Shown piece by piece: positions 2,441 to 38,821 of a stretch of DNA of 64,000 nt. Where the stretch lies: contig CM074511.1 in assembly GCA_037379345.1 (NCBI GenBank), positions 30,014,862 through 30,078,861 of the forward strand, written 5' to 3'. The first letter of the stretch is position 1, and every line of letters starts with the position of its first letter. This stretch comes from Perna viridis. Its lineage: Eukaryota. Under the pieces are notes generated by a model. The model made no database searches and was not told where the DNA came from. It saw nothing but the letters and a program-made list of their open reading frames with translations. The position numbers and the translations under genes were made by a program.

Positions 2441-3515
2441 AAGAGTAATCAAGGGAACCAAGGTTATAGCGGTAATCAAAAGAATGTAATCCAGGTACAA
2501 AGACCCGACATGGAAAACAGACACACACTACAAAGAATATAAAGTAACTCAAATCATACATACAAAGTAACAAAAGTAAATGAGCAATTCGGACTCCATT
2601 AAAAACTGGGAGCATCGACCAGGTGCACCGGTAGGGTAAGCGTCCTCTGCTTTTCTAGAAATACCCGCCGAGTTCCTCATAAAAAGTCAAGTCCGGGGTA
2701 GACAAACGAGGAAAGGTAAACTATGACCCGTTGAATAAATCAGTTTTCATGGTGCTGATGGATACATCATAACGGTCCACGAGTTCATGATGACGACCAT
2801 AAAACTTCTGTAGTGATGACTTCAATCTTGTAACAACATAACCCTGTTCCAGAAGCCTATTTGTTAGACTTCTAGCGCGATACAAAAAGTCTGCGTAGTT
2901 TCGGCAAGCTCTGGCATAACGTATGAGTTGTGATATGAACACTCCATACGCAGGAACCGAAGGAATGTTGCCACAGACGAAAGGAAAGTTGACAATTCTA
3001 AATGAAAAGTCATCACGTTTGTCGTAAAGTTTCGTCAATAGTTTTCCTTTACCATCGATTTCTAAGTGTAGGTCAAGATATGAGGCTGACTTCACAGTGT
3101 CTGTAGTATCCTTTATCTCAAGTTCTTTTGGGTAGATGCGATGTATCAAATCCCCGAAATTAGGATTGTTTAATACGTCATCTACATATCGGAAACTGAG
3201 ATTGAAGGATCTAGCCAAACGATATTCTTTTTTTTCTGATCAAATCAGCTATAAAGTCAGCCTCATAAGAGTGAAGGAATAGGTCAGCAAGTAAAGGAGC
3301 ACAATTTGTTCCCATTGGAAAGCCGACGGTTTGTTGAAAAACACGTCCACCACACTGGACAAATGTGTTGTCGATTAAAAATTCCAGCATTTTGTAAACA
3401 TCTTCCTCTGTATATTTGGAAGATGATTTGGAATTATTTCTTACAAAGTATGAGGAATGTCTACCAAGAACTATATATTTGTATCTAGGTGTACCATCTT
3501 TTTTGAAAAAAAAAA
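2441..3515 (-). mobile_element. Penelope-like retroelement (Naiad-like), 5'-truncated, longest copy; RT C-terminal half plus 3' UTR
   Basis: Two frameshifted ORFs (3211-3603, 2721-3218) give [77 protein letters not shown]. The ORF stops at DLFNGS* with no downstream endonuclease, followed by a 280-nt tail ending ...CCCTTGATTACTCTT. Confidence 0.88.
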
Positions 3516-4892: not shown

Positions 4893-7230
4893 ATAAATAA
4901 ATAAATATTATAGTTGTTCAGTGTAAAACAGTCAGCCTATGATTGTGGCAAAAAATACAAAGACCGTCTCTGAATTGCCTTTCGTTGATTTCCGCTGTAA
5001 ATTCGAAGTATTGTTTCATTTTCACTTCAGTTTACTTTTATATTTCTGGAGTATTTAGGGACAAATATTTCACTGTATCTGTGTATAGTGTCGTTTTGGG
5101 GCCAGCAGCAGCATGCCTTGTGTTGTGAGGGTTTCTGCATTATTCATTAAAGAGCCATGGATAGACTTGAGATGACTTTATTTATTTCGGTGCGGTTGTT
5201 GTCTCTTTGACATATTCACCGTTTCCATTCTCATTATATAATAATTAGACTTACATTTGCAATGTTTAAATAGATCTTTTTTTTTTTTTGTTTTTCTTTT
5301 GTTTCAAAGCTTTAAAAATTCGAATCTTGTAAATATATCTGCAGCATGTTGGTTTTGGTCAAATTGCAATTGTGTTTAAATATATTTTAGGGGATTCTTT
5401 TGATTATCACAATGGAATGAAGTATACTACAAAGGACAGGGACAATGATCGTTACCATATAAATTGCTCAAAACATACAGGTGGAGAAGGAGGTTGGTGG
5501 TTCAGGGACTGTGACATGGCAAATTTGAACAGCCTACACACAAAAGGAAGTGGTGAGAAAGGAATAGAGTGACAAAAGGCAAAGAAAGACCACTCGATGC
5601 AGTTTTCAAGAATGATGATTCGGCGGTATTGATGTTTGTCAGAGTGTTGAAGTTCGTCGAAAATTTGATATCTAACCGTGTTTTATTGCATTGTTTTGAA
5701 ATGAATTGATTTGATTTTATATGTATTTTGAATTTCGATAAAATTACAACAAACTAGAGATTTTAATTTTAGTTGAATAGTATGTAGTTAAACATATGTT
5801 GGGGTTAGATTTTAATTCTCTGAAAGCTGTCACTGAGCAAGAACTCAACAACGAACTAGCATAGAATATGTAATTTGATACACCTTTGAGTACAATACGG
5901 TAACTACTCTAAAAGAACCAAAAATACAACAATCCAGCGATAACGACCAGAAAAAAACACATGCAACAAAACAGATGAAATAACCATAATAACACGCACA
6001 AATTATCGAATCAGCAACCCTGACTTATCCCTTGATTTTCTGGAAGCACCTCCGAGATGCTTATAAATTATTAGGTCAAAGTTAAAACTAACCAGAAAAA
6101 AACTATGACAAGATATGACAGTTATAAAGTACTGCTGAATTGTAAAAAGTCTAGTACCAAAACGTTTGAATGCTAAAATCGAGTTCAGCCACTCAGCTTA
6201 ACATGCAAGGCAGAAATTGTAAAGAAATGATGTACATTTATCTTTACAGACATTAGAGGTAAACATCCCCCTCTCGTTTTATTGTTATGATAAGAATATT
6301 GCACGTATTCCGAAATCAAATGGGCAGGCTCATCTCGAAAAGGGCAAAATAGAAGAATGAAATTAGAATTTCCGATTTTTTTCAAAGTAACGTTATAATA
6401 CTGAATGATGTTCGATATTAAACATTTCTTTGATAGACAGCCCTGAACAAGACAAAAATAAATAACTGTGGAAGTACAAGTGTTGAGTGATCATATCGCT
6501 TTAGATTTTGTCGCTATGAGCAATAAAAAAGGTAAGATAATACAAACGTCTGTTTACAATAGAGATATTTTTGACAGAAAAAAAAAAATTCTATTTATAT
6601 TTTACTTTCTTCAACTAAATTCAACAAGAATTGTACAAAACAACTCAGGAATAAACTAGCTTAACATAATTTATTATGTACAAATGCTATGATGCTGTCA
6701 ATTAAAAGGAGTATAAAATACAATACTATATTTCTGTCAATACTGACATAATATATTTAATGCACCGTTTCTATGCCTGTTCCAAGTCGGGACTATTGCG
6801 ATGGTGTCCTATATTTCCGGTTTTTAACCTGATATTGACATTTGTTATGCGGACATTTCTTTCAATTGTTCCCTTAGACTATTGCCCAGATTTTTTTCAG
6901 TTCAGTAATTTTGTTTATGCCCTTAATTCAAAGAAATTATCAATTGGGTGGTTGCATAAATAGCCAATGCATTTATTAATTTGAAATTTAAACATAAACA
7001 AAACAAGTAAAGAATTAAAAATGCAAACCTTTGTTTAAGAAGTTAAAAGACAAACATTATGTAAAAAAACTGAAAAGTTATATTGAAAATGTGTAAAAAC
7101 AGCAAATAATAACACAAACGAAACAGATACATTATACATCATGTAATAAATCAAATCATTGATAGTTAGGCTATATATTTATTTGAACATTTCTTTTGTC
7201 AGTAAGCAGCTGTAAATAAAAGAGTTTAAA

Positions 7231-7712
7231 AGCGTAATCAAGGGAACCAAGGTTATAGCAGTAATCAAAAAAATGTAATCCAGGGACCAAGACCAGACAT
7301 GGAAAACAGACATACACAACAAAGAACATAAAGTAACTGAAATGATACATACAAAGTAACAAAAGCAAATGAGCAACTCGGACTCCACCAAAAACTGGGA
7401 GCATGGACCAGGTGCACCGGTAGGGTAAGCGTCCTCTGCTTTTCTAGAAACACCCGCCGAGTTGCTCATGTAAGTCAAGTCGGGGTATACAACGGAAAAC
7501 TATGACCCATTGAATAAATCAACGGATAAGTTGAGATATGAACACTCCGTACGCAGGTGCCGAAGGGATATTGCCACAGATGAAAGGAAAGTTGACAATT
7601 CTGAATGAAAAGTCATCACGTTTGTCGTAAAGTTTGTTAAATAGATTTCCTTTACCATCGATTTCTACGTGTATGTCAAGATATGAGGCTGACTTCACAG
7701 TGTCTGTAGTAT
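7231..7712 (-). mobile_element. Same Penelope-like family, truncated copy with internal deletion
   Basis: TTDTVKSASYLD...[10 protein letters not shown] joined directly to DLFNGS*; 3' tail near-identical to 2441-2720. Confidence 0.9.
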
Positions 7713-9505
7713 ACTTTAAAAACACATTTTTGTAGAAAGGTTGCAAATTTGTATTACTGTTTAATCGAAAAATTGTCTCCACCTACAAATACACATATCT
7801 ACAATTTAATTTCGTATCTTTGATATGAAAGACAACCTAATCAATAAAATTATGACCGTTTCCAGTTGAGATGACTAAGAAAGACTAGTTAATGTGCGTT
7901 CGGTTTAATTTGGAATGAGTATAACGTCTATTAAACATGTGTATGTTTAGATTCTTGCTCGCTCTGAAACTGTTATTTAGACTCTTTGTTACTGTCATTA
8001 CGTAGGTGAGAAAAGCCGAAGTAACTTGTTTACGGCACGGCAAAAATGTATTCCCACAATTGTTATAGAACCGAAATAATTTAAAATATAACTCGCATTT
8101 AAAATTCAGCTGCTTTTGGGATGTAAATAACAACTTGACAGATTGAAGTGTAAATTGGCTTGAGTGTTTGAGAGGATATCCTGCACAAAATTTGCGTTTA
8201 GATTTTTGATTCGTTAAAAACATGTCCGCAATGTTTACTTATTGAGCATGTAACTAAATCCGCTTATTGAAGGGAATATTTCAAAAACTATGAGGGTTAA
8301 AAAAAATTAGATGACCTTCCTTCTTCTGCTTGAGGAGATTTACGTGAAAATGTAAGTAAACCAAGTGGTCGATTCCAGCTCCCTTGAGCCTTAAGTTTGA
8401 TTTCACTGAGTTTTAAATGTATCTTCTGTACATTCATTTTTTGATATCGTTTTATTTTCTATTTTGTTATAAGGATGATGAAGAGAAAGTTATTCTAGAA
8501 ATGCGTTTAAAGCATTATGAAATGTGCATTATTGTATTAGATATGTATTCTTGTACTGAAAAAGAAATCAGAATGCTTTAATTTGACCCCTTCCTATCCA
8601 TACCCCAAAAACAACAAAAACAAAACTAAAACAAAAAACATTCGACAAAAGTAAATACGCTCTATCGTCTATGACATTCTTAGTTCCGCAAAGATTAAGT
8701 GAGTTTTTTCCTAAAGGGGGGGGGGGGGGGCGATGAGAGCAGATCTACACTAAGCTTCGGTATTTAACATGAACTTCTTTCATATACTAGTAACTAAACC
8801 AGTGGAACAAAATGAACCATCCCTAAATTATTTAAAAACAATACCGAAACACTACCTTAGTGTCGGATCAAACAAACAATACTGATGCGTGGATAATTGG
8901 TGTCAGTTTTAATAAAAAGATTTTCAAGCCATAAGTTAGTCCAATTGGCGTTTACGCGTTTGACCCTTGTTCAATATAAAACTCGACTAAGAAACCTCGA
9001 AAACATTCGCTTGAATGTTATGGATATCTTGGGTAAATCAATATGACCTCATGATGTATGTTGGATTTATGCATCTTATAACAAAAAATGCATCTACCAT
9101 ATATATTGTCAATTTATATGAAAAACTATGAAACACTAATAGAGACATGCAGAGGAAGGTTTTCAGCGCACACAATAATATATTTTCTTAATATTTTCTA
9201 TCAGGGCTCCGTATAAAAAAACACATTTTAACAATAACTTTCTACATTTTAGTAGAATATGTCTTTGATTATAAAATCATTTTTTATTATCAAAAGCAAA
9301 ACACTTTACGTATTGAAGCAAACACTTAAAGCAAAAACAAAGGGATAAAATAAGTGTATCCTGAGCTACATTCTTTAAAATATGTCACTAACCGCAACTA
9401 CGTTTTGAAAATATACATCTCCCAACCATCACTGTCACATAAAGAGAGGGCAATTAAAGTTGTGTTTGTAAAGCAGGCAACAAAAATCTATTGTTACAAA
9501 AACAA

Positions 9506-16244: not shown

Positions 16245-18459
16245 AGTTATTTACTTATTTATATTAGTTTTATGTGATTGTATACTATAATCCTTTGCTT
16301 GTATTTAGATTTAAAAAAAAACGTCATATGTTCTACCTATTTGTAAGAGTAATTTTTGGTATTATATGGAATACTAAACAAATTAAAAAAAATAAACAAA
16401 GGCTTTGTGTTTAAGTATACATACGCTACATTTACAGTTAATCAAAACGTATCTCTTAAAGACAAGTCTTTATTATCATTCTATATAATGCATAAGTTAA
16501 CATAGAAAAAAGTGAAGAATGCATGCAGTAAAAATGTAAAAATCCCTGTTGATATTGGCAAACCCCTTTTACTTTAATTACAGCCCTGCTATATATGAGA
16601 TTCAAGTTAAACGCAGGTATAAATTGAAATTAGAATCAAACCAATATACAATTGTATGAGGTTGAAATCAAAACACCCTTCAATACCTACATGGAATATT
16701 ATTTTATTTGTTTTACATCACTTAAAGGAACTAATGGCATACATTTCCAATGCAGCCATTAACAAATTACTCTGTTATCGTTATTGATTACCAAGTCTGA
16801 CGCATTATACATTTAACATCAAATCAAAAAGTTGCCATTACTTATCTATATACAATTCAATAATGAATTATCACTAATAGGGGTAAATTGCGGATTCCAT
16901 GGGTGACAAAACAGTTTTTGACAGTCAATATACCGACACAAGTTCACAGGAGAAGAAAGAAAAAAACAAAGGAAAATATAAAACACACAAAAAGACGAGA
17001 AGAACGAACCCCACAAACAACAGAAGCATTTAAAGTATTTCATATGCAAATTTGGAACACAGAACAAAAAAAATATTTCTTGCACATTGAAGTATGTTAT
17101 TTAAACGGAGTTTTGTAATTAGAATTTGGGTAATGTGTGTTGCCTGTTCCGCCTACTCGCGGTCTTTGAAGGAAATACCCTAGGAATGATATGAATCTGT
17201 TTCACTTCGTGGTTTCTTGAACAGAGTGTTTAAAAGTTTTTCAACGATGAAAAAGACAGCTAAGTGTTGATATAATTTCACATAAACCTTAAGTAAAGGT
17301 AAGCTAAAATTAGTTAGGACGTGAACTTAAACTGGATAAGACGTATCTTTCTTCTCATAGAAGTATTAGGCGGAAACAATATGACTGTCATGGACATAAT
17401 ACAAAACTAGTCATTCTGCACTCTTTAAAGTGTCAGAATGAATGACATCTTTTCATGTGATAAGGGGATAACTATTTTTATTTTCCCACTTTTAATACTC
17501 AAATAAGATACATTCACATTTTGGTCAGATACAATGATACGATACTGTATCTATTAACCTTTTATAATGTCTTCATTCATTCGAGAAACATGTTCTTTTA
17601 TGCTTCCAAATTTGTTCACATTCTAACTTCCATTAGAAATACATGAATGAAGTACATTGCAATAGAAATTTTCGAGACCAGGAAGACTTTCTGATATAAC
17701 TGGTGACGAAATAAGGCTTTAAGTTTTAAACTTCCATTTTGAATTTTACGTATAAAAATTCTCTTTGTATGATCTAACAAAATAAAACAAAACTGTACAC
17801 AAAATTCGATAAGAGTTGTTAATGAAATATGTATTTTATTAATGTTATCAATCAAGAATCTTAAGTACAGTTTCCATGTATATATTGTACCTTATGTTAT
17901 GTGCATTTGTTTTAATAGACAGTTGTTCTTTTTGGTCAGGAGATTTGTTTTGAATTTGCAGTTTATGTTTAATTGATCATATTTCCAAATAACTTTACCA
18001 CGCAATCCAAATGCATGTGTTTGCAGATAGGCCCACAGAGCAAGTAAACAACAAGAATTTGCCTGTAACTTTATATCAATATTTGGAATTAGAGAAGGAT
18101 AGTATACGTAAGTTTTCTCTAGTTTGCACGAATCAAATCTCTCAAAACCCTTTAGAAATGTATTTTTATGTTAATGAACTTTCTTATTACTCGACTAAGG
18201 CTCACTATATTATTCCAAATGTGATTTGATTGAAAACCATGGCTAAAATATTGATAGTTTTCTTTGTATTCATACAATCAATTCTCGACAAAACCAATTA
18301 TGTGACCTCACAAAAAAATAGAAAGTGGATTGAAGGTAAAACGTATTTTTAAAATATAGCAGCAAATAGCAATTAAATAAGCCTTATTTGATTCCTAAAA
18401 ACGATTTTTATCAATATTAACTTCAGACACTGCCAATAGTAAATCCATGAATACATACG

Positions 18460-19035
18460 CCGGTGCACCTGGTCCATGCTCCCAGTTTTTAGTGGAGTCC
18501 GAGTTGCTCATTTACTTTTGTTACTTTGTATGTATGACTTTAGTTACTTTATGTTCCTCATAATAAGTCAAGTCCGGTGTAGACAAAAGAGGAAAGGAAA
18601 ACTATGACACGTTGAACAAATCAGTTTTAATGGCGAAGACGGTTATACCGTAACGATCCACGAGTTCACTATGACGACAATAAATTCTGTTGTGATGACT
18701 TAACCCTGTTCAAGAAGCCTATTTGCCAGAATAATATCGCGTTACAAAAAATCTGTGTAGATTTGGCAAGCTCTGGCATAACGTATGATTTGTGTCACAC
18801 GCAGGTGCTGAAGGGATGTTGCTACAGATGATAGGAAACTTGACAATTCTGAATGAAAAGTTTGTCGTAAAGTTTGGTCAATAGTTTTCCTTTACCATCG
18901 ATTTCTAAGTGTAGGTCAAGATATGATGCTGACTTCGCAGTGTCTGAAGTATCCTTCATCGCAAGTTCTTTCGGGGTAAATGCGATGTATCAAATACCAA
19001 AAATTAGGATTGTTTAAAGATAATACGTCATCTAC
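18460..19035 (-). mobile_element. Penelope-like copy with inverted 3' segment
   Basis: 18460-18556 matches the 3' tail on +; 18553-19035 matches the RT end and tail on -. Confidence 0.88.
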
Positions 19036-19634: not shown

Positions 19635-20427
19635 AAGAGTAATCAAGGAAACCAAGGTTATAGTGGTAATCAAAAGAATGCAATCCAAGGACAAAGACCA
19701 GACATGGAAAACATACATACACAACAAAGAACATATAGTAAAATCATACATACAACGTAACAAAAATAAATGATCAACTCGGACTCCACTAAAAACTGGG
19801 AGCATGGACCAGGTGCACCGGTAGGTTAAGCGTCCTCTACTTTTCTAGAAACACACGCCAATTTGTTCATAAAAAAGTCAAGTCCGTGGTAGACAAACGA
19901 GGAAAGGAAAACTATGACCCGTTGAATAAATCAGTTTTCATTGTGCAGATAGATATACCATAACGATCCAGGAGTTCATGATGACAACCATTAAACTTCT
20001 GTAGCGATGGCTTCAATCTTGTACCAACATAACTCTGTTCCAGAAGCCTTTTTGTCAGATTTCTAGCGCGATACAAAAAGTCTGCGTAGTTTCGGCAAGC
20101 TCTGGCATACCGCATGTGATATGAACATTCCATACACAGGTGCTGAAGGGATGTTGCCACAAATGAAAGGAAAGTTGACAATTCTGAATGACAAGTCATC
20201 ACGTTTGTCGTAAATTTTTCCTTTACCATCGACTTCTAAGTGTAGGTCAAGATATGAGGCTGACTTCACAGTGTCTGCGCTATCCTTTATCTCAAGTTTT
20301 TTTTGGGGTAGAATCCCCGAAATTAGGATTGTTTAAAGATAATGCGTAATCTATATAGCGGAAACTGAGATTAAAGGATCTAGCCAAAGGATATTCTTTC
20401 TTTCTGTTAAGATCTGCTATAAAGTCA
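19635..20427 (-). mobile_element. Penelope-like copy, 5'-truncated and frameshifted
   Basis: ORFs 19912-20229 and 20063-20269 carry RT C-terminal motifs; same 3' terminus aagagtaatcaagg. Confidence 0.9.
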
Positions 20428-21932: not shown

Positions 21933-24900
21933 ATGGCTGCGCTTTTCAAGCTTTCAGTTGTAATAACATTGACAGTTGTTGTGGAATCTTATTCCCTTCA
22001 AACGTTAGACAAAGGATATTTGATGCAAGGTAAGTAAAGGATTTTTTGTTAGAAATTATGAAGCAGCAGAAGAGATTTTTAAGTGTAAGTGTTTGTAAGA
22101 ATAATGCAAAATCGAAAAAATCATAAGCATGCATGTCATAACCCCCACCGCTCTGACAATGTAATATCACTCAAGGATACTTTCTCTAGTAGAAAATACA
22201 ATTATTTAATTTTAGTCTACATCACTGGCTTTGACATTTTTTCAATAGCATTTAAGAAAGGGGAGACCTTTGACAGAGTTATCTGCCCTTGAAATGTTCA
22301 TTTTCAGTGCATTTCAATAAAATTATATAACTCAAAGCACCAACATGATATGGAAATATTGTTTTTTTTTATTCCTTGAGTTTGATAGTGAAAATAGTTC
22401 AATTACACTCAAAATTATGTTTTTTTCATACCATGTTTCACCCACTATCTGATTCTTACAAAGACTGACACTTAATAAGCAAATATAAAATAACCAACAA
22501 AAAAAAAAAAAAAAAAAAACAACAGTGGAAACGAACAGACAGAGGTATTTGTTATTTAAGTGTAAGTTTTTGTACGAACCAGAAACACGCATGTCTGAAA
22601 CTCACCAACTCACCAACCTGACAATACAATTATTCAAGGATGCTTTTGCTATTGAAAAATACTTTTATTTGACCTCTGCATCATTGGATTTGCTTAACAA
22701 AATCTTTCAACAAAATGTAAGAAAATGATATTTTTGGCAGAGGTATATGCCCCTAAAATATTCATTTTTATTTCTTTCCAATGAAATTACAACTCAATTT
22801 ACCAAAATGATATGGAAACATTATCTTTTTTCCTTGGTTCCGATGGTGCCAATTGTCAGCTCAAACTTTCAAAATGTGCCTTTTTTATACCTTTCTCTCC
22901 CTCTGTCTAATTCTTATATAGACTGATAACTACTTTACATTATTCAGTGTTAAAAAAGGGAGTTAGAAGCATACATGAGGACAAACCAATTCGGTAAAAG
23001 TTTTTTTTTTCTTTTTTTGCTTTTGTTTTATTCTCTCAAAGGAAGTTAATCTAGAACTCCGTTATCTATTTATAACTCTGCCTAATACTAATCAATTCGA
23101 CGAAACAATCATTAAACAATGCGTTAATTGTACAAGTATCTATTTGGTTTACATGAAATTGACTAGATTTACATTTTATTTTTTTTTCATTTCATAATTA
23201 CAAAATGATTTGTCAAGGCCTTTATTGTACAGGTATGCGTTTGATGCTCGTGGAATTGAGAAGTTTTATATGTTTTCCATGATAAATTCCAGATAAGGTG
23301 GATGCAGCTAATAACAGGTCTATAGACGATTTTATGAAAGAACTACATGGTATGTTGTATTTATTTTCTTCTCTTACATTCTAACAATCGTTGACTGTAA
23401 ATATTTCAAAAGAAGTATGATCTTTTTCTTTCCTACATGTTCAATAATGATACATATTCAGAGAAGGTCTCTTCTTGAATGTTCCAAGAAGTTGTCATTG
23501 AAATTTACTATGCATGTTTTGAATTCTAACACAGCCTCTGTCCTCGTACAATAAATTTATTGTCTAAATATAGTAGATAATATTTGTGTTATCATTCCTT
23601 TTACAAAACGTTTTTTGTATAATAACATTGAAATAATAACGAAAAACATTTACTCATATCAATGAATTACTATATTTTTGGAAATTGCATGCAGACGCTT
23701 TTAGTTCATTAAATGTTTAATTCTATCATGTCAGTTTATAAAGAGAAAAACTGATATGGTTAAAGGTTACAAATGGACTTTCAACGTATAATCTAAATAC
23801 TAAATAGTAAATACTTACAAATCTCCAGTAAATGTAAAAAACACCTTTGATAAGCTCTTAGGTAAGGGTCCCGTTAACAAAATGTAATATCCACGGTAAT
23901 TGAATGATGACAATTCTTCATAAGCAAACGAGAAAAAAAATATAACGACACAGGGTCAAATTAATGACCAACATCACCTGACTGTCAAAAGGCACCTAAC
24001 ATGAATAAGTTCATTCAAAAATATACCAAATTCTTACATGGGGTACTTTAACATCCAACATATAGACAAAATAAAATGTCCACTTAAAGAACGCTCGCAG
24101 TAACTGAATGCATGCTAAAACACATTAAAGACTGACCACACCATGAAAACTATTACATTAGAAATAATCGGTCACTGCGTACAATTCAAATCGACTGGAT
24201 TTGGACTAGTAACGTTAAATACCAAATTAACAAGAACTTTCATCTGTGGCAACATCCCTTCAGCACCTGTGTATGGAGTGTTCATATCACAACTTATACG
24301 TTATGCCAGAGCTTGCCGAAACTACGCAGACTTTTTGTATCGCACTAGAACTCTAACAAATAGGCTTCTGGAACAGGGTTTTGTTGCTACAAGATTGAAG
24401 TCATCACTACAGAAGTTCTATGGTCGTCATCATGAACTCGTGAATCGTTATGGTGTATCCATCTGCACCATGAAAACTGATTTATTCAACGGGTCATAGT
24501 TTTCCGTTCCTCGTTTGTCTACCCTGGACTTGACTTTTATGAGCAACTCGGCGGGTGTTTCTAGAAAAGCAGAGGACGCTTACCCTACCTCTGCACCTGG
24601 TCCATGCTCCCAGTTTTTAGTGGAGTTGCTCATTTGCTTTTGTTACTTTGTATGTATGATTTTAGTTACTGTATGTTCTTTGTTGTGTATGTCTGTTTTC
24701 CATGTCGGGTCTTTGTCCCTGGATTATATTCCTTTGATTACCGCTATAACCTTTGTTCCCTTGACTACTCTTTGAAGTAGTGCAATACTAGACAAAAATA
24801 TGAGTTTTGTTCATGTAGGTTTGCAAAATGGGTGTAAATCTCTATTTGTGAAATCACGATTCAAAGAATAGACAATAAATTGATAATCGTATTCTTTATT

Positions 24901-37120: not shown

Positions 37121-38821
37121 ATCATAGAAAGTTGGCAAAATTGATGTTGAAATCAATAAAATATAAGGCAGACGTCGATCATAATGGTTGCCCTACTGAT
37201 GAAAGCATTGCAATGTATTTAGTTTGGTGGCAATATATCAACATTAATTGCTTACGGAGTGTATTTGTTATTTAAATTCATTACTGTCATGCCAGTTATT
37301 TCTTTCGCTTTGGAACGAATTGCTATTGTAAATGATTTAGTTTTTTATGTGCTGTCTTGTTTTACAATAGCATTGTACATCGTTCTGTTATTTTAGATTT
37401 TTTTACATTTTGTATTAGCTCGTCTCTGGTTTCTGTTTCAAGGTTTGGTCATGTACTTAGATTTTGAAATCTTTGATTTACCATTTTTTTGCTAATCTGT
37501 AACTACTTTCTGCATACTCCATACTGAATGAAACTTTTTTTTTCCATTTTAATTAAACACACATATCAGTCAAACATATCTGAATTCTGTTTTGTATTAT
37601 ATACTAAGTATCGGAAAAAATATAACGCTATCTGTTCAGCAATTTCTTTTCAGAAAATGCAATCAATGTTTTAAAGAACAGAACATCTGATGAGTTTTTA
37701 GAAAGACTTGAAGGTGTGTACGTAACTTGATACAGAATATTTTTGCATAATGCTAATAATGAACTTTAAAGTGTCAGACTCTTTAGGAATCAGATAGTGG
37801 GTGAAATATGGTACAAAAAAAAACACTATTTTGACGTTTAATTTGACTAGTTGCACCATCAAAATCAAGGAAAACAAACAAGATTTTCCATATCGTGGTA
37901 AATTGAGTTATAATTTCATTGAAAGCACCGAAAGTCAACATTTCAAGATCAGATAACTCTATTGAAAACCTCATTTTTCTATTTTTCTATTGAAAAATTA
38001 CTGGGCAAATCCAGTGATGCAGAGATAGCATTTTTGAATGACATTATATAGTCAGATAAGTGGGATTTGAAATTAATGTTACTTTTTCCACTTTGACTGA
38101 TTCTTACAAAAACTTGCACTTAATTAATTTTACAGTAGTTATTATTATGTTTCGAAGTATTTTATTAACTGCATCATCAAAATTATATATGTTAGTTTGC
38201 GTTTGAATACAAAAACATATATACAAGCTTCCCACATCTGTTTGAATGTTGCATTGTCCTATAATTTGTTTTTTTCAAACAAAGAAACTTGCCAAAAATG
38301 AACCACATTTTGATTTTAAAATTAGTTCGATTTAAACAGGTGTTCTCTTTATTAAAGGTCATAATGCCTTTTAAGTAATATAGAGAGACTTTAAAAATGT
38401 CTTGTTGCGACAATTTTTCGTCTTTTCAGGACAGTTTTAACTGTAGTTCTATAACCATGAACAAATTTCGTAAGTATTAAGTGGTGTAGTGGTATAATAG
38501 TTTCTATTCATGTTATTTTTTCGAAGGGTCTTGCCTTGTCTTTACTTCTGATACGGTTACAGATCAATGGTTGATGCAATTGACGCTTTATTTGAATCGT
38601 AAGTTCATATTTTGTTTGATATGGTCACAGTTTTTACACTGCATAGTAATCTATTGCTGAAAATTCGAAAACATACTTTATAGTCCTTAAATAGCTGTAA
38701 AATCTAATTTCTATGATTTACGGGCTATTTCGATTATTGATGGGAGAATAAGGAAACGTAATGGTGATTATGTATGTAGGAAATCAGTTTAAAGGCATTC
38801 GTTTTTTCCCTTAAAGATAAG

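Follow-up and report, generated by a model that had tools for sequence, protein, structure and literature searches.

The 3′ UTR of a Naiad retroelement in Perna viridis encodes a deeply conserved RNA fold, apparently undescribed, that carries two palindromes predicted to pair in trans with a second copy of the element. The fold, referred to below as motif A, lies on the minus strand of the window, the 64-kb stretch of P. viridis DNA that was analysed, within the 3′ UTR and pseudo-LTR of a Naiad copy (Table 1). Pairing and covariation across families make it very probable that motif A is a structured, self-pairing RNA. As to its function, we tentatively prefer a self-cleaving ribozyme that acts on paired copies, and weigh below the non-catalytic alternatives. 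So far, small self-cleaving RNAs make up about ten classes (nine and a proposed tenth), so that another from animal genomes would be a major discovery.

Table 1. Motif A, its parts and copies, neighbouring host features and motif B. Positions are those of the window, except for motif B, which is given by locus.
Feature	Position	Strand	Basis
Main element copy, motif A	7369..7469	-	sequence reading and covariation
P0 5′ strand, outer stem, pairs with 7377-7381	7457..7461	-	two-sided changes at 5/5 pairs, 96.9% paired
P0 3′ strand	7377..7381	-	covariation
P1 5′ strand CGGGUG, pairs with 7409-7414, G-U wobble at second pair	7451..7456	-	97.4% paired, two-sided changes at 0/6 pairs
P1 3′ strand CACCUG	7409..7414	-	alignment
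Palindrome 1, 10 nt, loop-less, predicted pairing with second copy	7441..7450	-	column shuffles, position control
Linker, conserved, ends in CAG	7436..7440	-	A33 and G34 invariant, C32 at least 90%, in alignment A2
Pseudoknot 5′ strand, pairs with 7404-7408, 4/5 pairs in this copy's family	7431..7435	-	two-sided changes at 5/5 pairs, 95.4% paired
Pseudoknot 3′ strand, directly after P1	7404..7408	-	covariation
Core GCUYAC, mostly unpaired in the model	7425..7430	-	invariant in A2; GCUCAC variant in published consensi
Palindrome 2, 6-8 nt, abuts P1 3′ strand, predicted pairing with second copy	7415..7422	-	variants among loci and consensi
Hairpin Pc, variable loop, missing from crab consensus	7382..7402	-	two-sided changes at 4/5 pairs, 92.3% paired
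U-rich tail, poorly conserved among families (not alignable); 7230 marks the shared 3′ end of copies and the probable RT start	7230..7368	-	
Naiad RT gene, 3′ fragment; stop codon 7500-7502; internal deletion of ~175 nt	7500..7718	-	
Second element copy, behind 172-aa RT C-terminal frame at 2721-3239	2579..2680	-	
Inverted partial copy, joined to minus-strand copy stopping inside P0 5′	18448..18556	+	
Element copy	19769..19870	-	
Element copy, small deletion in P0 3′	24539..24634	+	
Element copy, 3′ side cut off	39074..39156	-	
Strongly decayed element copy	40561..40672	-	E 0.08
Decayed element copy	53829..53928	-	
Motif B	L331:1300-1372	+	by eye
Motif B	L033:150-225	+	by eye
Motif B	L036:1612-1692	+	by eye

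The first-pass annotation of this DNA had proposed a conserved cis-acting RNA of a Naiad-like element that lacks a hammerhead core and might prove new to Rfam, and this proposal holds: the covariation is strong, and neither a hammerhead core nor an Rfam family was found on the element. The perfect 13-bp inverted repeat (7369-7381 / 7457-7469) and the sequence that it encloses are present on the minus strand as described, the GC content of the element (0.54) exceeds that of the downstream tail (0.35) and of the end of the RT gene (0.38), and the five further copies that had been named are all there. We find seven full or partial copies in the window besides the main one; this recurrence reflects copies of a single transposon family and nothing more. 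The element follows the RT stop codon by 30 nt in the main copy and by 40 nt in the copy at 2579-2680. An origin of the element from a tRNA or SINE was rejected, no tRNA being found within the window. The window also carries a separate dispersed repeat family of 200–400 nt with at least six copies (22073-22926, 37769-38027, 42581-42917, 52658-53035 and 59069-59385).

These copies belong to one transposon that is abundant genome-wide. Exact matches to the core pattern number 11,036 across the 723 Mb of the P. viridis genome, as opposed to none for the reversed control, and a 22-mer from the tail has 17,336. A long genomic copy contains a 727-aa frame with the CxC (DCSC), DKA (ADKA), GIPMG and YIDD motifs of the RT, which ends just before the element. 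In a full-length copy the first frame, located upstream of the RT frames, has Zn-finger-like motifs and the YGLEC..C..IYVGET motif of a GIY-YIG endonuclease, and by eye this frame matches published Naiad proteins. Pfam gave no match on the RT frames scanned (those of the window and of locus L110), so the identity of the host rests on these motifs. The copies display further features of Naiads, being 5′-truncated and accompanied by partial tandems (pseudo-LTRs) and by inverted copies, with inverted partial copies flanking many insertions. Judged from its sequence, the host is thus a Naiad Penelope-like element with an N-terminal GIY-YIG endonuclease, CxC, DKA, a C-terminal RT, partial tandems and inverted copies, the very marks that define Naiads in the sections consulted of Craig et al. 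2021 (PMC8557442). The same genome also contains older families with different stems. At one locus (L342-L344, G000 C5:25.03 Mb), three units of a Naiad copy with an internal deletion stand in tandem at intervals of 2,943 nt.

Read 5′ to 3′ on the element strand, motif A consists of the 5′ strands of P0 and P1 (CGGGUG), palindrome 1, a linker ending in CAG, five pseudoknot letters, GCUYAC, palindrome 2, the 3′ strand of P1 (CACCYG), the five partner letters of the pseudoknot, hairpin Pc and the 3′ strand of P0. We assessed this model in an alignment of 13 rows, which are family representatives chosen by eye as well preserved; several are related, and the five rows with long matches share 47–70% RT identity with the long copy from the P. 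viridis genome. Across the four helices 95.6% of 272 cells are paired and two-sided changes occur at 14 of 21 pairs, values matched in none of 500 shuffles and set against 31–46% in slid controls, although both pairing and invariance are inflated by the choice of rows by eye, by the conserved-letter search pattern (to which the linker letters also belonged) and by kinship among the rows. P0, the pseudoknot helix and Pc covary across the aligned families, whereas P1 is paired but nearly invariant; its lack of two-sided changes follows from the fact that it scarcely varies.

This comparison of diverged families bears out much of the structure first drawn from a single copy, namely the outer stem, the CGGGUG/CACCUG helix and the last hairpin, all of which pair across the 13 rows, as well as the expectation of covariation, which is strong in P0, the pseudoknot and Pc. 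The 13-bp repeat had been described as perfect in the main copy. Its inner 5 bp hold across families (97% of cells paired), but the outer 8 bp (7462-7469 / 7369-7376), which extend P0 to 13 bp in the family of the main copy, pair in only 68% of cells across families. The proposed pseudoknot between AGG and CCU fails, with only 46% of cells paired; the supported one joins the five nucleotides that precede GCUUAC to the five that follow CACCUG. This 5-bp pseudoknot and both palindromes had been missed. The AAGC/GCUU inner hairpin is paired in 94% of cells but shows one-sided changes only, and in the published Clytia Naiad-2 consensus, part of the records inspected by eye, it is broken.

The strand that is structured can be read from the exceptions to Watson–Crick pairing. 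On the sense strand there are 31 G–U cells (12 of which belong to one invariant column) versus 4 A–C cells, and this excess points to the element-sense RNA. Single-sequence folding is weak and not strand-specific (z = -2.0 on the element strand, -3.0 on the opposite strand), so the excess over chance comes from the comparison of diverged families. That the opposite strand is predicted to fold as well or better would suit a feature acting at the DNA level, such as palindromic protein sites or cDNA hairpins with no RNA structure. However, the 31-to-4 ratio on the sense strand, the absence of A–C pairs among the departures from symmetry in palindrome 1 and a palindrome sequence too freely variable for one DNA-binding protein make this explanation very unlikely.

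Palindrome 1 comprises the ten letters after GGGUG. Among its ten distinct sequences, 46 of 50 pairs are Watson–Crick compared to 22.8 in column shuffles, none of 20,000 of which reached the observed score; the four departures are three G–U pairs and one other mismatch. The inner four letters, represented by six distinct tetramers, are complementary in 10 of 12 cases (7 of 100,000 shuffles). As a position control, we scored the other 10-mers of the same UTRs, of which 11 of 2,299 are fully self-complementary, and 28 chance matches to the search pattern in prokaryotes and one virus pair on average at 1.5 of the 5 palindrome positions. We considered whether prokaryotic and viral matches are true elements and rejected the idea: 28 of 29 resemble chance matches and the last one, L141 (RAYO01000111.1, 407 bp), is an animal-type contig in a bacterial assembly, whose Naiad 3′ end is near-identical to a published bivalve consensus and which is likely a contaminant.

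Palindrome 2 is intact in two variants among the loci, ACCGGU and UCCGGA, and among 11 representatives it is imperfect in L141 and broken in L204 and L207. Seven more variants were found by eye in the published consensi that we inspected: UGGCCA and UGGUACCA in Clytia, AGGUACCU in a crab, CCUAGG and CCAUGG in oysters, and UUUCGAAA and UGUCGACA in the hemichordate-part and toadfish records, the species being assigned from neighbouring headers and file order. In these records each variant is accompanied by its own palindrome 1, imperfect in the crab, and by its own pseudoknot pairs. The outer three pairs of palindrome 1 could form a small hairpin, but its inner four letters cannot pair within one strand. 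As the centres of the palindromes have no partner inside a single copy, pairing between two copies is predicted. Folding energies computed for two copies favour the dimer by 5.2–13.4 kcal/mol in 11 of 11 cases, in a calculation that has no control and leaves out pseudoknots and is given no weight here. We infer that two element copies would pair through both palindromes.

To survey relatives, we searched with the C-terminus of the RT and collected 49 metagenome loci, of which 29 come from a single record series. With a covariance model, the element is placed directly behind the RT in 29 of the 49 at E ≤0.01, and weakly in 2 more; the other 18 comprise 8 contigs that are too short, 4 broken copies and 6 distant relatives (35–41% identity) with other 3′ sequence. 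By eye, the same anatomy is recognisable in the inspected Naiad consensi of Clytia, a crab, oysters and other bivalves, hemichordates and a toadfish, although in Clytia it lies several hundred nucleotides behind the stop codon. By sequence comparison, then, the element is conserved from cnidarians to hemichordates. It is present, unremarked, in the consensus sequences of Craig et al. 2021 (PMC8557442), as is motif B (see below). The passages of that paper available to us do not describe the element, reporting only that canonical hammerheads are lacking and that four families have SECIS elements, and in its table Clytia Naiad-1 is the sole element-bearing family flagged 'HHR_core' among the entries consulted. 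Our literature searches returned no description, though Repbase or Dfam notes or subscription journals may contain one.

Several other 3′ motifs came up in the survey. In the consensus records, Clytia Naiad-1, -2 and -3 share another conserved GC-rich 3′ UTR motif, which in Naiad-1 and -2 lies upstream of the element; Naiad-3 seems to be without the element. Two distant RT relatives (L054:750-850 and L063:745-845, 37–38% identity) carry a different closed motif that also has two palindromes, one differing between them (GGGCCC / AGGUACCU) and one common to both (AAACAUGUUU). Behind the RT of another distant relative are at least three tandem repeats of ~70–80 nt (L055:2150-2395). Finally, two Chlamys consensi in the Craig 2021 supplement contain a hairpin that starts with GACGGGUG and is closed by the complementary strand, like the P0/P1 strand, which may be chance.

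The copies themselves end well beyond motif A. Counted from the first G of GGGUG, the 3′ end that they share falls at about +225/+226 (window position 7230), which is 139 nt past the element. Of 30 loci chosen for the presence of the endonuclease gene, 17 have an upstream pseudo-LTR that ends at the common 3′ end; the upstream element is complete in 13 (3 of which form one tandem array), while in the other 4 the pseudo-LTR starts inside the element. The starts of the pseudo-LTRs spread from -849 to +42. Directly behind the common 3′ end, and before the start of the ORF, sits a second conserved hairpin, motif B, whose stems covary by eye in three sequences and whose invariant segments in these three are UGCUGGUGG and CCCCGAG. 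Motif B is also seen at the 5′ ends of the oyster, mussel, hemichordate and toadfish records among the published consensi inspected.

These positions bear on the suggestion of the first-pass annotation that motif A is an RT-binding or priming signal. In the telomerase RNA core an outer helix closes a pseudoknot, and P0 closes one here; motif A is near the 3′ end and its invariant letters could contact protein. The suggestion is nevertheless weakened by the end of the copies 139 nt away, exactly where the covarying hairpin of motif B is found, and it leaves the palindromes unexplained; we judge it unlikely. A telomerase RNA core as such, which would carry its repeat template within the pseudoknot domain, was rejected, since the copies end outside the element and the letters after GCUYAC vary between families. 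In the Poseidon element of Anolis, according to the parts consulted of Frangieh et al. 2024 (PMC11167929), RT initiates internally on the RNA, at the pseudo-LTR/ORF junction, and needs the surrounding sequence, so that the required RNA lies around the RT start and not in the hammerhead. Motif B is therefore the better candidate for an RT-binding or start signal.

The position 30–40 nt behind the stop codon would also fit a 3′ UTR element that serves RNA stability, export or translation, for example by blocking nucleases, or a SECIS-like recoding signal. SECIS elements are kink-turn hairpins with an AUGA...AA...GA pattern, which does not occur on the element strand, and the 727-aa frame has no in-frame UGA. 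Nor would a role in the 3′ UTR account for the palindromes, and the Clytia consensi, as far as inspected, have the element several hundred nucleotides behind the stop. Even though SECIS elements at this position are reported for four Naiads in the sections seen of Craig et al. 2021 (PMC8557442), we consider this explanation quite improbable.

The reading that we prefer, and hold tentatively, is that motif A is a self-cleaving ribozyme activated by pairing, which would cut a two-copy transcript and yield a product that could be joined into a circular template. The idea of a new self-cleaving motif, already raised in the first-pass annotation, may be right. Given its location in the pseudo-LTR, a tandem transcript would contain two copies of the element, and these would pair through both palindromes. 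RT would start at the junction beside motif B. Since the transcript of a single insertion would have motif B only at its 5′ junction, copying of the whole ORF would need a circle, an end-to-end jump or a longer tandem, and circle and jump alike would use pairing between the 5′ and 3′ elements. The letters GGGUG, CAG, GCUYAC and CACCYG, which hardly vary, would form a putative catalytic core that is active only in the pair; a one-copy circle would then not recut itself, as proposed for Penelope-type hammerheads. In the excerpts consulted, the hammerheads in the pseudo-LTRs of other Penelope-like elements dimerise via palindromes (Cervera and de la Pena 2014, PMC4209133; Weinberg 2019, PMC6765202), and such dimers are thought to permit cutting of multimers while sparing monomeric circles. 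In one nematode Naiad consensus from the records seen (the record before Naiad-3_Nbra), inspection by eye shows at the 3′ end what looks like a whole hammerhead of the rearranged type CSG, with stems I–III and all core letters, suggesting that the slot can house a ribozyme in Naiads too; this rare order would explain why hammerheads have been overlooked by standard descriptors in some Naiads.

Genomic junctions bear no trace of a fixed cut. In a hand count over 167 Mb, 5′ truncation junctions at +2, +1, 0 and -1 number 19, 10, 14 and 10 versus 15 and 10 at two control sites, with no pile-up at any single site, and from +18 to +47 a hand count gives no clear peak beyond an A/T bias at +27 to +29. 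The break rate among 115 copies is the same in the element (3.1 per 1,000 nt) as just upstream (3.3), leaving no cleavage footprint. A cluster of 5′ ends that first seemed to lie between -7 and +2 was discarded when it vanished in the genome-wide junction counts. The variable starts of the pseudo-LTRs likewise argue against a fixed cut end. The preferred reading is also weakened by the absence of any of the catalytic cores sought, by the imperfect or broken palindrome 2 in three of 11 representatives and by the imperfect palindrome 1 of the crab. Poseidon, the sole Penelope-like element tested in vitro, offers a parallel in the parts consulted of Frangieh et al. 2024 (PMC11167929): mutations in its hammerhead leave insertion in vitro unaffected, so a ribozyme in the pseudo-LTR slot may be dispensable, and no RNA reads end at its active hammerhead, so a missing genomic footprint means less.

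The lack of a footprint is also what would be expected if motif A were a non-catalytic clasp, a lesser but real possibility. Here the pairing of elements would hold together the 5′ and 3′ pseudo-LTRs, or two RNAs, and so let RT jump from its start at the 5′ junction to the 3′ copy, or let a protein dimer insert two cDNAs, giving tandem and inverted insertions. All the structural evidence fits a clasp equally well, no cut would be necessary, which agrees with pseudo-LTR starts that vary and with truncations that leave no footprint, and the inverted partial copies beside many insertions are in its favour. So is work on the Anolis Penelope-like protein: the sections seen of Frangieh et al. 2024 (PMC11167929) predict that it dimerises and show it extending both strands of the DNA. 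However, while a clasp needs the palindromes, it is not obvious why it should also require some 20 core letters that hardly vary or a four-helix knot maintained from cnidarians to hemichordates, and in other Penelope-like elements, as far as the sources consulted go, the same slot is occupied by hammerheads. Returning to the ribozyme, and more tentatively still, motif A might represent a new structural class, an obligate homodimer in which two trans palindromic helices surround a pseudoknotted core and which, in the hammerhead slot of a large branch of Naiads, makes a circular RNA template.

Either outcome would matter beyond this element. If the ribozyme is real, this genome alone would contain more than 10,000 copies of a new class that fills the hammerhead slot. 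If the element is non-catalytic, self-pairing kept by evolution while both palindromes change freely would suggest that what Penelope-like elements have in common is a need for the pairing of two pseudo-LTR RNAs and not for hammerhead chemistry. The question also touches on the way in which these telomerase-related elements produce insertions that are full-length, tandem or inverted, and on why Naiads thrive without canonical hammerheads.

We compared motif A with known RNA classes by pattern and by covariance model. The hammerhead core CUGANGA is absent from both strands at 7341-7500, as the first reading of the DNA had it, and no GAAA joined to stem III and NUH was found; the only GAAA strings lie within palindrome 1 and upstream, and they are not shared among families. 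Rfam has no family on the element: the window gave two chance matches elsewhere (E 2.4 and 4.6), and 12 related loci scanned with Rfam 15 gave four, none on the element. The element strand has no core string of the hammerhead, HDV, twister, pistol or SECIS types. In HDV-like ribozymes P1 contains a G–U pair, and a strand comprising P1 3′, a pseudoknot strand and a hairpin runs through the P1/P1.1/P4 stack. Motif A resembles them in its P1 with a G–U pair and in the continuous P1 3′–pseudoknot strand–hairpin; the wobble is present in 12 of 13 rows, but the letter ahead of it, whose counterpart in HDV-like ribozymes is unpaired, is able in 12 of 13 to pair with the G that follows. It differs in that Pc runs straight into P0, with no linker bearing a catalytic C (J4/2), and in that the outer stem starts 5′ of P1. 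No string on the element strand matches the HDV L3 pattern, and genomic junctions, an indirect test of an HDV-style defined 5′ end, show no excess at -1 to +2. Pistol ribozymes have the order AG–pseudoknot strand–GC, in which the pseudoknot strand is followed by GCGU and the linker that is cleaved is GU. Motif A shares AG–pseudoknot strand–GC between two helices but reads GCU(Y) instead of GCGU on the element strand (GCGU occurs only on the opposite strand), and has neither a P1 hairpin that supplies the other pseudoknot strand nor the GU linker. Twister, which is marked by a GAGG(G) block and two pseudoknots with L4, was rejected, as there is no string or Rfam match and GAGG here overlaps the freely covarying pseudoknot strand.

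Further parallels lie in arrangement. The dimer initiation site of retroviruses pairs two RNAs near their 5′ end by means of one 6-nt palindrome, displayed in a hairpin loop, whose sequence varies between lineages. Motif A would likewise pair two RNAs through palindromes whose sequence can differ between lineages, but it has two of them, flanking a pseudoknot, and lies in the 3′ UTR of a retrotransposon. The minimal type I hammerheads of Penelope-like elements share with it the pseudo-LTR position and palindromes that let two copies pair, as far as the consulted parts of PMC4209133 and PMC6765202 go. Unlike them, motif A lacks the CUGANGA core and the GAAA–stem III–NUH arrangement, and it has two palindromes instead of one, together with an intramolecular 5-bp pseudoknot and four helices, and its self-cleavage is putative. 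It therefore resembles the dimeric pseudo-LTR hammerheads in position and palindrome logic and, by its sequence, is not a member. Poseidon of Anolis offers, in the material seen of Frangieh et al. 2024 (PMC11167929), an RT start at the pseudo-LTR/ORF junction beside structured RNA and a separate RNA motif in the pseudo-LTR, but that motif is a hammerhead and its two start sites give a 30–40-nt tail, whereas Naiad copies have one dominant 3′ end and an unrelated fold. Collectively, the fold of motif A fits no family tested, while its job may equal that of the dimeric hammerheads.
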